This document shows positions 57,045 to 58,932 of a stretch of 58,947 nucleotides of DNA, piece by piece. How positions within the stretch are numbered: the stretch's first letter is position 1; every line of letters begins with the position of its first letter. Origin of the DNA: Patescibacteria group bacterium (lineage in GTDB: Bacteria; Patescibacteriota; Minisyncoccia; Phycocordibacterales; UBA9973). A model generated the notes under the pieces. The model was not told where the DNA came from and ran no database searches. It saw nothing but the letters and a program-made list of their open reading frames with translations. Location: NCBI GenBank assembly GCA_038061925.1, contig JBBTYD010000007.1, positions 1-58,947 of the forward strand, given 5' to 3'. The position numbers and the translations under genes were made by a program.

Positions 57045-57158
<114 letters not shown>

Positions 57159-57171
57159 AAAACTCAATTCG

Positions 57172-57192
57172 TCCATAGGCCTTGCCTATGGA
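57172..57192. repeat. REP variant in the 23S-5S spacer
   Basis: TCCATAGGCCTTGCCTATGGA. Confidence 0.8.
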
Positions 57193-57378
57193 TTTTACTT
57201 AATTTTTATATATTGAAAACTGAGTTTTAGGCTTCGGCTTAAAAGTTTAAAAAACCAAAAGCCGAAGAATAAAAGATAGCGCTCCGCGAGGATAATCCTC
57301 TCTATGTGGCCAACCCCAAATAGGCTCTCCACAGAGCACGGAGCGCAAGACAAAGAGCAATTTGGGAGCGTATGCATT

Positions 57379-57444
57379 GTAAAGTCCCGCTTTACATTAA
57401 TACACAGCCAGTATGTAATCGTAAAGTCCCGCTTTACATTAATA
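57379..57444. repeat. Two direct copies of a 24-bp palindrome-containing unit
   Basis: GTAAAGTCCCGCTTTACATTAATA at 57379 and 57421. Confidence 0.85.
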
Positions 57445-57529
57445 TACACACCTTCCCCAAAACTCAATTCTCAATATTGTTTTTCCCGCCTCCACCGAAA
57501 TTTCGGCGAGGCAAGTGTGATTTCCAAAT

Positions 57530-57759
57530 TTCTTAACAGGAATCGAAACATTAGTACTTCTCAGCTCAAGCGATTACTCGCCTTACACTTAAAGCCTATC
57601 AACGTGATCATCTCTCACGGTTCTTAACGATTCCTAATCTTAAAGCTGGCTTCCCTCTTAGATGCTTTCAGAGGTTATCCATTCCCGACATAGTTACCGA
57701 GCAGTGCCCTTGGCAGGACAGCTCGCACGCCAGAGGTCAGTTCACTTCGGTCCTCTCGT
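57530..57759 (-). rRNA. rrl: 23S rRNA 3' exon (about E. coli 2657 to the 3' end; end approximate)
   Basis: CATTAGTAC, CCTATCAACGT, TTAGATGCTTTCAG and CGGTCCTCTCGT match the 23S reverse complement. Confidence 0.93.
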
Positions 57760-57925
57760 CACATATTTCCCCTATTTCTAGGAGTGCAGACTATATCTTC
57801 ATCCTTCGACAAGCTTAGGATAAATCCTTTACTTATCGGGAGGATGTTGGCGTATTACAAGCATAAGCCTGTTTCAAAAAACTTTCCAGCGTTATGCAAG
57901 TCCTCCGACCTGAGTCGGAGAGTCG

Positions 57926-58405
57926 TTACGGGGTCAAATTTAAAATCTTATACAATTCGTTTTTTGTTTTCTTCTTTTTAGTAATATAATTTTCACTTTG
58001 AATAAGTAAAATGAGATTAACAAGTTTAACCAATTGCTTTTTTGTTAGCTTTTGAAATTTCGTACCAGATAATATCCCACACGCTTGTAAAAGCGCATGA
58101 GCTTGAAGTTTTTTGAATTTGATATATGGCAATAAATTTTTAAGAATATTTCTTATTTGTTTATAACCATTTATTCGCAGTTCGGTCATTCCATCATTTC
58201 TTTTGGAAATATAACCAATTCCTAAAACTTCCTTTATCCAATACAAAGTCTTTTCGTGCCTAGTATCTTGATAGAAACAAATTGTAGTCATAAAACGAAT
58301 TGCTCGTTTACTATCGCTTCGCTTTTTCAGCTGAAGCATTAGACTACCATCTCCATCAAGAAAACCGGCAATATAAGCTAATTTGATTTTAGATTGACTT
58401 CCCAC
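57926..58405 (-). CDS. Intron-encoded single-motif LAGLIDADG homing endonuclease
   Basis: AYIAGFLDGDGS; LLPYIKFKKLQA; stop codon abuts the R element. Confidence 0.93.
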   Translation of the reverse strand: MGSQSKIKLAYIAGFLDGDGSLMLQLKKRSDSKRAIRFMTTICFYQDTRHEKTLYWIKEVLGIGYISKRNDGMTELRINGYKQIRNILKNLLPYIKFKKLQAHALLQACGILSGTKFQKLTKKQLVKLVNLILLIQSENYITKKKKTKNELYKILNLTP

Positions 58406-58411
58406 GGTATT

Positions 58412-58420
58412 ATCTTACCA
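58412..58420 (-). promoter_or_regulatory. Extended -10 box inside the intron, 6 nt before the LAGLIDADG GTG
   Basis: TGG-TAAGAT-AATACC-GTG. Confidence 0.55.
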
Positions 58421-58568
58421 CATTTCTGGTCCTCAAGCGAATCATAATACCAAAGACCGTTCAGTATTATTTTTCATCGAACTAGAGACATTGATGAAGA
58501 CTCCACCGTTATTAGCCACATTGTCATCATAAATTTCTTTATGAAGTAGCAAGGACCCTCTCGGGTCT

Positions 58569-58631
58569 ACTAGAAGCAAATCTTTTCAAGAATCAACGAG
58601 TGCAGTAGATAGGAGACCAACCTGTCTCACG
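58569..58631 (-). rRNA. rrl: 23S rRNA internal exon (E. coli 2594-2656)
   Basis: 63 nt, the same length as the E. coli segment; CGTGAGACAG...CTAGT. Confidence 0.93.
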
Positions 58632-58932
58632 CATGATTTCACAAATTACTTTGTGCATTGGACTATACTTTCTCTGACATAAGATCAGAGGTCGGTTTGT
58701 AGTCTCTACAAAGAAAATTAAAATTTTCTTCTCGATATCATCCTATCAGTGTTAGTGATATGGGATTTCATCGAAAACCCCGACTTAATTCTCATAATTA
58801 AACAAGAACCGCCGTGATTTGATTGGTTCTATCTTTCAATTTCATAAACAAAAACAATTTAAATAACATAAGTTTCAACTTTCCTCTGAGGATTCAAACT
58901 GTACTTCAGCCGAAATAAATTTCCGCTTCAGT
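58632..58932 (-). mobile_element. ORF-less group I intron (301 nt) after U2593
   Basis: Exons join as CAGACCGT|CGTGAGACAG; terminal G; R element GTAGAGACTA and S element AAGTATAGTCC. The canonical U.G pair in P1 was not clearly found. Confidence 0.85.

Follow-up and report, generated by a model that had tools for sequence, protein, structure and literature searches.

The sarcin-ricin loop (H95) of the 23S rRNA must be one continuous hairpin. What, then, is the 809-nucleotide (nt) insert that lies inside it in a Patescibacteria group bacterium (GenBank assembly GCA_038061925.1), and how might the loop come to be whole in the ribosome? The insert is found in contig JBBTYD010000007.1, whose positions 1 to 58,947 are called the window here, at 57760-58568 on the minus strand, between U2656 and A2657 of the 23S rRNA (Escherichia coli numbering). 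We give a probability of about 92% to the reading that it is a mobile group I intron, belonging to a large family present at this position in the candidate phyla radiation (CPR, Patescibacteria) and corresponding to the class 23IS14 of Tsurumaki, Sato, Saito & Kanai 2024 (J Bacteriol 206:e00074-24; PMC11270868). We infer both its splicing and its homing from sequence.

The insert and its junctions

The rRNA operon is on the minus strand and runs off the end of the window. The 3' part of the 23S gene extends from 58947 down to ~57530, and the 5S rRNA gene is at 57048-57154 (72 bits). Two inserts interrupt the 23S gene, at 58632-58932 and at 57760-58568. When both are removed, the 308 nt of exon align unbroken across both junctions to the 23S gene (all 5,426 E. 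coli genomes). The segments around the second insert are the following.

58569..58631, minus strand: 23S exon between the two inserts, C2594 to U2656
57760..58568, minus strand: predicted group I intron, 809 nt, delimited by the exon alignment to E. coli, with boundaries kept in 53 of 53 complete introns (that of the window and 52 relatives) and an Rfam RF00028 match (32.9 bits, E = 4e-6) in its 3' half
57530..57759, minus strand: 23S 3' exon, from A2657 to approximately the 3' terminus; its first bases, ACGAGAGGACC, make up the 3' half of the sarcin-ricin loop; placed by the Rfam large-subunit (LSU) rRNA alignment, which reaches the model end (2925), and by the E. coli alignment

The insert splits the sarcin-ricin loop as AGU^ACGAGAGGACC, where the caret marks the junction. 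In the RNA sense, the 5' junction reads ...GCUUCUAGU(58569)^A(58568)GACCCGAGAGGGUCCUUGCUAC and the 3' junction AAAUAUGUG(57760)^A(57759)CGAGAGGACCGAAGUG, so that the ends of the insert in context are GCUUCUAGU^AGACCC...AUAUGUG^ACGAGAGGACC. The annotated E. coli rrl gene begins one base late, and AGTACGAGAGGACC at its position 2653 corresponds to canonical A2654. Since AGTACGAGAGGACC starts at canonical A2654 in the E. coli alignment, the junction is U2656^A2657. An A on either side leaves a one-base ambiguity in the boundary, which is settled because the 5' exon must end in U, pairing with a G of the guide sequence, and the intron must end in G. Both the exon-final U and the intron-final G are present in 53 of 53 complete introns at this site. 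The initial annotation had placed the insertion at exactly this position and with exactly these coordinates.

Two groundwater metagenome runs contain DNA contigs (~10x depth) whose sequence is the same as that of the window over 58499-58609, and thus over the 5' exon-intron junction, as well as in the interior of the intron; an assembly chimera is therefore unlikely. None of the identical DNA contigs listed from these two runs spans the 3' intron-exon junction.

Secondary structure of the putative ribozyme

To define the fold of the insert, the 53 introns were aligned after deletion of their open reading frames (ORFs), and RNAalifold was used on this alignment. The elements of the model are given below in RNA order; percentages are the proportions of alignment cells that form pairs.

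58569..58572, minus strand: 5' strand of P1, UAGU, the last four bases of the 5' exon (U2653-U2656), with U2656 in a U·G pair; the Rfam alignment of an ORF-less relative (L270) puts P1 here
58547..58550, minus strand: internal guide GCUA, 3' strand of P1, inside UGCUAC (53 of 53 introns); TTGCTACTT in most
58527..58544, minus strand: P2 hairpin, 7 bp with a GAAA (GNRA) loop; 98.9% standard pairs, and 5 of 7 pairs with double changes in 8-30 sequences
58515..58518, minus strand: 5' strand of P3, UGGC, pairing with GCCA at 57848-57851
58504..58509, minus strand: 5' strand of P4, ACGGUG, pairing with UACCGU at 58404-58409; recovered by RNAalifold and by the Rfam alignment
58410..58503, minus strand: P5 and peripheral extension, variable in relatives, with conserved blocks GGAGUCUUC and CUUGAGGACCAGAA; fold predicted only
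58404..58409, minus strand: 3' strand of P4, UACCGU, including the GU of the GUG start codon; AAUACCGUGGGAAG nearly invariant over the 53 introns (one C/U position)
58396..58403, minus strand: 5' strand of P6, GGGAAGUC, beginning with the third base of the start codon and ending with the first of codon 4; invariant, placed by the Rfam alignment
57930..57935, minus strand: 3' strand of P6, GACCCC, within the last three sense codons UUG ACC CCG
57921..57924, minus strand: 5' strand of P7, GACU, one base after the stop codon (UAA-C-GACU), pairing with AGUC at 57789-57792
57903..57920, minus strand: P7.1 hairpin, CUCCGAC-UCAG-GUCGGAG; relatives have a hairpin there with other sequences, and the pair count is weak (47%) owing to indels
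57861..57897, minus strand: P7.2, base GCAUAA/UUAUGC; 88% pair, with double changes at 6 of 6 pairs, in 4-24 sequences
57848..57851, minus strand: 3' strand of P3, GCCA, pairing with UGGC at 58515-58518
57801..57845, minus strand: P8, base AUCCU/AGGAU; 89% pair, CG to UA in 26 sequences
57788..57800, minus strand: J8/7 and 3' strand of P7, GAAGAUAUAGUCU, fitting the Rfam group I consensus gAAGAUAUAGUC; nearly invariant
57769..57787, minus strand: 5' strand of P9.0 (GCA) and P9 hairpin CUCCUA-GAAA-UAGGGG, 6 bp with a GNRA loop; 99% pair, covarying
57760..57763, minus strand: 3' strand of P9.0 (UGU) and terminal G (57760); a G precedes ACGAGAGGAC in every intron

The exon bases UAGU and the guide GCUA are invariant in the 53 introns; P1 shows no covariation because the exon itself does not vary. 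P3 pairs in 100% of cells, with UA replaced by CG in 14 sequences and GC by UA in 5. P4 likewise has 100% standard pairs, its sole variation being one G-C to G·U change in the 53 sequences, and both P6 (GGG(AA)GUC with GACCCC) and P7 (GACU with AGUC) are fully paired and invariant. P3 and P7 interleave, which is the pseudoknot topology of group I introns. The 3 bp of P9.0 (GCA with UGU) are standard in 85% of cells and vary as GC/GU/AU, CG/UG/AU/UA and AU/GC/UA at the three pairs. P9.0, which covaries, pairs the nucleotides that follow P7 with the three that precede the terminal G, and hence it fixes the register of the 3' splice site and of the terminal G.

As a control, the 3' partner of each covarying helix was shifted by 1-2 columns. 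Standard pairing in P2, P3, P7.2, P8, P9.0 and P9 is 85-100% in register versus ~10-60% after the shift. In P6, the three invariant G-C pairs still pair fully at a one-column shift, owing to a run of four Cs.

The presence of P7.1 and P7.2 between P7 and the 3' strand of P3 is typical of subgroup IA, and the intron is thus IA-like. The Rfam score of the window insert is low because the ORF splits the core. Its ORF-less relative L270 (279 nt) matches the full Rfam model (positions 1-253, 41.1 bits, E = 2.5e-9), its helices being assigned as in the window, and another relative (L214) scores 37.4 bits. The 2024 CPR survey used a cmscan cut-off of E <= 1e-4 (PMC11270868).

Altogether, the comparison of sequences indicates that the insert is a group I intron with a complete core. 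Covariation in this core, together with the protein matches described below, supports its initial identification as a group I intron with a LAGLIDADG homing endonuclease in the sarcin-ricin loop. P1, the terminal G and the core elements proposed at that stage are confirmed over the 53 introns. The P10 pairing that had been called plausible is not: all that could pair is GGUCCU with exon AGGACC, at a distance of six bases from the splice site, and relatives do not share it.

The peripheral elements of this predicted intron family vary widely. In 12 relatives (L007, L015, L017, L018, L023, L027, L030-L032, L034, L046 and L056), a P9.1-like hairpin of 20-70 nt is added between P9 and the terminal G, and L015 also has a ~150-nt insert in the P5 region.

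A hairpin that resembles the interrupted loop

The first nucleotides of the insert form a hairpin with a GAGA loop, in which the initial annotation saw a likeness to the sarcin-ricin hairpin.

58554..58567, minus strand: P1 extension hairpin GACCC-GAGA-GGGUC, optional and lineage-specific

The hairpin is present as described, but its likeness to the sarcin-ricin loop is not conserved. It occurs in 19 of the 53 introns and is absent from the other 34. Its stem covaries (GACCC/GGGTC, AACCC/GGGTT, GGCCC/GGGCT and AGCCC/GGGGC), and its loops are variable (GAGA, GAAA, GCAA, GGAA, GTAA, TTTA, TTTT, TAAA, ATAA and others), with GAGA in only two introns, those of the window and of L023. Mimicry of the sarcin-ricin loop is ruled out by the absence of the hairpin from 34 introns and by the presence of GAGA in just two. 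The resemblance is a by-product of the commonness of GNRA loops.

The LAGLIDADG protein encoded in P6

The insert contains one ORF whose product has the features of a homing endonuclease.

57926..58405, minus strand: ORF of 159 aa in the P6 loop, predicted single-motif LAGLIDADG homing endonuclease of the I-CreI type

The protein has a single LAGLIDADG motif (YIAGFLDGDGS) and matches Pfam PF00961 (LAGLIDADG_1) over one stretch of its 159 residues with 46.2 bits, versus a cutoff of 23.1. The nearest structures in PDB are those of the homodimeric enzymes I-CvuI, I-MsoI and I-CreI (E = 9e-18 to 8e-12). Alignment to I-CreI-derived chains pairs FLDGDGS with FVDGDGS, YQDT with TQKT and IKFKK with LKLKQ. 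The equivalents of I-CreI residues D20, Q47 and K98 are present as D19, Q46 and K97 of the window protein, by a hand count from the alignment. In 52 of 53 ORFs no stop interrupts the frame between the conserved GTG and the conserved TAA, and the pairwise ratios of non-synonymous to synonymous substitutions (dN/dS) relative to the window ORF are 0.10-0.23. These comparisons indicate that the ORF is under purifying selection.

The two ends of the ORF are part of the ribozyme. The GUG start and the next three codons (GUG GGA AGU C..) form the 3' strand of P4 and the 5' strand of P6, and the final codons with the stop (UUG ACC CCG UAA) form the 3' strand of P6 and J6/7. This is why the ends are identical or nearly so in relatives: AATACCGTGGGAAG is the same in 53 of 53 introns save for one C/U position, and TTGACCCCGTAACGACT is identical in 52 of 53, synonymous positions included. 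ORF-less relatives retain GGGAAGUC and UUGACCCC, joined by a short hairpin.

An ORF of 65 aa on the plus strand (57784-57981), antisense to the 3' half of the ribozyme, was treated as a chance occurrence, given its overlap with the conserved core and the lack of anything in its favour.

I-CreI is a homodimeric enzyme encoded in the L2593 intron of the chloroplast 23S gene of Chlamydomonas reinhardtii. By analogy, a homodimer of the window protein would cut the intron-less DNA site TCTAGT^ACGAGA, and repair from an intron-bearing copy would spread the intron. The best dyad symmetry of the target DNA (6 of 11 positions in TCTAGT^ACGAGA) is centred exactly on the insertion point. This near-palindrome would suit a homodimer, which is only suggestive. 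The 15-base core of the target, TAGTACGAGAGGACC, is identical in E. coli.

Distribution among relatives

A search with the window protein against GTDB species representatives gave 57 loci, at 57-91% protein identity. Complete introns are present in 52 of them, with the identical junction YUAGU^A...G^ACGAGAGGAC and the UGCUAC guide block; in the remaining five, contig ends intervene or one junction is missing. The closest relatives by endonuclease (81-91% protein identity) are in Nomurabacteria/Paceibacteria metagenome-assembled genomes (MAGs), which points to a CPR host for the window. The protein clusters related to the window endonuclease number 3,228, and the best 120 of these 3,228 are all at least 80% identical.

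In one locus, in Nomurabacteria GW2011_GWA1_36_15 (L009, LBRM01000007.1, ~448-1222), the 5' exon ...CTATCTACT passes directly into the intron-internal sequence ACGGTGAAGTCTTC. The missing ~35 nt of exon and first ~60 nt of intron correspond to a deletion or a misassembly.

We also scanned for the 3' junction with a strict pattern (AAGATATAGTCT, 20-50 nt, GACGAGAGGACC), and this added at least 120 species loci to those above. A loose 5'-junction pattern, CTAGTAN{3,30}TTGCTACTTC, gave mostly chance matches in unrelated bacteria and is unfit for counting. The 3'-junction matches listed are nearly all from the CPR, in many candidate phyla, e.g. Magasanikbacteria, Daviesbacteria, WWE3, Kaiserbacteria and Zambryskibacteria. 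Complete chromosomes, such as OY970216.1, are among the carriers. From these searches, the predicted 2656/2657 intron occurs in more than 150 CPR species. With insertions in the 23S genes of 52 related species and at least 120 further species loci, the site is already a common one, and the initial annotation had itself named this as a refutation.

Among the matches listed, 104 introns have both ends resolved. A LAGLIDADG motif is found in 75 of them, of ~700-880 nt, while about 25 are short (254-600 nt) and have no ORF or a decayed one; two truncated ORFs keep the motif. Intact, degenerate and ORF-less copies thus stand side by side across species, which fits the usual cycle of gain, decay and loss of homing endonucleases.

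Two matches with the exact 3'-junction pattern carry non-CPR labels, one in a MAG labelled Elusimicrobiota (L159) and the other labelled uncultured Gammaproteobacteria (L224). Their 3' exons are 66-77% identical to that of the window and 67-70% to that of E. coli, which is compatible with mis-binned CPR sequences or with true non-CPR hosts. The shortest intron, of 254 nt, is at the same site in a Zambryskibacteria MAG (L192, MHWZ01000002.1, 4933-5186). It has lost P2-P5, with the 5' strands of P3 and P4 missing, and retains the entire 3' half together with a residual piece of the endonuclease C-terminus. A group I core is not expected to form in its RNA, and this locus is an assembly error or a faulty 23S gene.

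The same data bear on whether the protein might act mainly or only as a maturase, i.e. as a splicing cofactor of the ribozyme, with purifying selection reflecting the need of the host for splicing at an essential single-copy site. Pure homing predicts decay after fixation, and yet, despite near-fixation in these lineages, 52 of 53 ORFs remain intact, with dN/dS values of 0.10-0.23. A splicing helper would be valuable where failed splicing is lethal, and LAGLIDADG maturases exist in fungal mitochondria; the possibility was also raised in the 2024 survey (PMC11270868). However, the protein keeps the equivalents of the catalytic residues D20, Q47 and K98 of I-CreI. Moreover, about one quarter of the introns at the site, among the matches listed, are short and mostly devoid of a LAGLIDADG ORF, and those must splice without a protein encoded in cis. 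Finally, endonuclease activity has been shown for I-ShaI, a related enzyme of the CPR (PMC11270868). We therefore consider a role mainly as a maturase unlikely, and retain the homing endonuclease as the probable function.

Proposed splicing of the intron and alternative explanations

In the proposed mechanism, the intron would remove itself from a single pre-rRNA by two guanosine-initiated transesterifications. U2656 would thereby be rejoined to A2657, giving ligated exons that read ...CUAGU-ACGAGAGG, and the sarcin-ricin loop could form. The RNA data, which are weak, are consistent with removal. In four metatranscriptomes the depth is 10^3-10^6 for the exons and 0-25 for the 2656/2657 intron, and in two groundwater metatranscriptomes, at a likeness of at least 97%, it is 10^3-10^5 for the exons and 0 for the intron. 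Short RNA contigs from the latter, among them one of 55 nt, correspond to the ligated exons of the window.

Several points weigh against our reading. The RNA contigs are short, were produced in other studies and could stem from relatives that lack the intron and have the same flanking sequences. The intron-less junction is also present in one DNA contig, of run X2. For these reasons the RNA contigs are not taken as proof of splicing. A conserved P10 was not found in the window intron or its relatives, and the structural model is loose for the P5 extension and for P7.1. The three Rfam scores (32.9, 41.1 and 37.4 bits) are significant, but none reaches the curated gathering score of 50 bits. Lastly, the GUG start has no obvious Shine-Dalgarno sequence and is sequestered in P4/P6.

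An intron depth of 0 in RNA contigs would also be expected if the insert were an intervening sequence cut out in the manner of RNase III without religation, leaving the 23S rRNA in fragments. Such fragmentation is known in bacterial 23S genes, and it is suspected at the CPR sites 23IS2 and 23IS4 (PMC11270868). However, the insert has a complete, covarying group I core with P9.0 and a terminal G, and the junction appears ligated in RNA contigs. A break between U2656 and A2657 would, moreover, sever the sarcin-ricin loop. This makes fragmentation extremely improbable.

The intron-less junction in the DNA contig of run X2 could alternatively mean that the intron-bearing gene is a dead or assembly-chimeric copy and that the ribosomes are made from another, intron-less gene. 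In contrast with this view, the exons are undamaged and stay conserved as far as the 5S gene, and the 5' junction is present in identical contigs of ~10x depth from two DNA runs. The same arrangement is found in the more than 150 species mentioned above, including the complete chromosome OY970216.1, and CPR genomes usually have a single rRNA operon (PMC11270868). We regard a dead or chimeric copy as very improbable. A mobile, self-splicing intron thus remains our preferred reading of the insert.

Relation to known introns

The 2024 survey analysed 348 CPR 23S genes and defined frequent insertion sites, 23IS1-14. LAGLIDADG_1 proteins predominate at positions 1917, 1931, 1952, 2593, 2604 and 2657 (23IS6-8 and 23IS12-14), and 23IS6-14 contain group I introns. 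ORF-bearing and ORF-less forms of one site are scattered over the host phylogeny (PMC11270868). The window intron agrees with 23IS14 in gene, position, CPR host, intron class, protein family and the existence of forms with and without an ORF: it is an insert of at least 100 bp at ~2657 in a CPR 23S gene, with a group I-like RNA encoding a LAGLIDADG_1 protein. The initial annotation had noted that the site is not among the classical LSU intron positions. This holds insofar as no group I intron had previously been reported at 23IS14 in other bacteria, but the site is already catalogued as common (PMC11270868). Thus, publication in 2024 had already covered the position, the class of intron, the family of its protein and its occurrence across the CPR, and a claim of novelty fails. 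A literature search on 'L2656' and intron returned nothing relevant, and the archaeal group I survey (PMC6125680) has no site at 2654-2658.

The main text of the survey does not mention the sarcin-ricin loop and, in the parts consulted, gives no secondary structure for the class. Its biochemistry concerns I-ShaI, from 23IS7 (position 1931), which cuts the DNA of its insertion site and dimerises, and not the 23IS14 enzyme or splicing (PMC11270868). The introns of I-ShaI and I-KazI (23IS7, 1931) share with that of the window a single-domain LAGLIDADG_1 protein in a group I-like insert of a CPR 23S gene; they differ in insertion site and target sequence. The introns of Coxiella burnetii (L1917 and L1951), Simkania (L1931) and Thermotoga (L1931) are likewise group I introns at critical sites of single- or low-copy 23S genes. 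They are at other positions, and according to the survey none is reported in the sarcin-ricin loop (PMC11270868).

Outside the bacteria, I-CreI, I-MsoI and I-CvuI resemble the window protein in being single-motif LAGLIDADG proteins of ~160 aa from group I introns of LSU rRNA genes. The I-CreI intron of the C. reinhardtii chloroplast differs in its organelle host and in its site, 2593 rather than 2656.

Other features of the operon

The other insert of the 23S gene in the window also appears to be a group I intron.

58632..58932, minus strand: second insert, putative ORF-less group I intron of 301 nt after U2593 of the 23S rRNA, preceded by an exon U and ending in G

It matches Rfam RF00028 with 24.2 bits (E = 0.0017), and its ligated junction is seen in RNA contigs. 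L2593 is the classical I-CreI site. Position 2593 corresponds to 23IS12 of the 2024 survey (PMC11270868).

Downstream, the 23S-5S spacer harbours a pair of hairpins at ~57373-57448, direct copies of ~33 nt each (TGTAAAG-TCCCG-CTTTACA, with similar flanks), which may serve as a signal for processing or represent a small repeat element. Another hairpin, CCATAGGCCTTGCCTATGG, is found at ~57165-57200, directly upstream of the 5S gene.

Implications

As a discovery, the intron has little weight, since it is a real but ordinary member of a published, common class of CPR introns. What the analysis adds is a secondary structure supported by covariation for the 23IS14 class, IA-like and with the ORF in the P6 loop, its start and stop codons being embedded in P4, P6 and J6/7. 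It also shows that the P1 hairpin does not mimic the sarcin-ricin loop.

Because formation of the sarcin-ricin loop has to await the joining of the exons, and the site is presumably single-copy, we have considered splicing as an obligatory late switch for the activity of the 50S subunit. Its rate would then set ribosome output in slow-growing CPR cells, perhaps tuned by the intron protein. A pre-50S particle that still holds the intron could not activate EF-Tu or EF-G, and since P4, P6 and J6/7 enclose the codons at which translation starts and stops, translation and folding of the ribozyme would be mutually exclusive. We find such a switch distinctly doubtful. A more modest reading is that the protein may be an active meganuclease with specificity for the DNA of the sarcin-ricin loop. 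The putative target of this enzyme is among the most conserved DNA sequences of bacteria, and the intron is a useful case for studying how cells tolerate an insertion at a site where failed splicing should be lethal.

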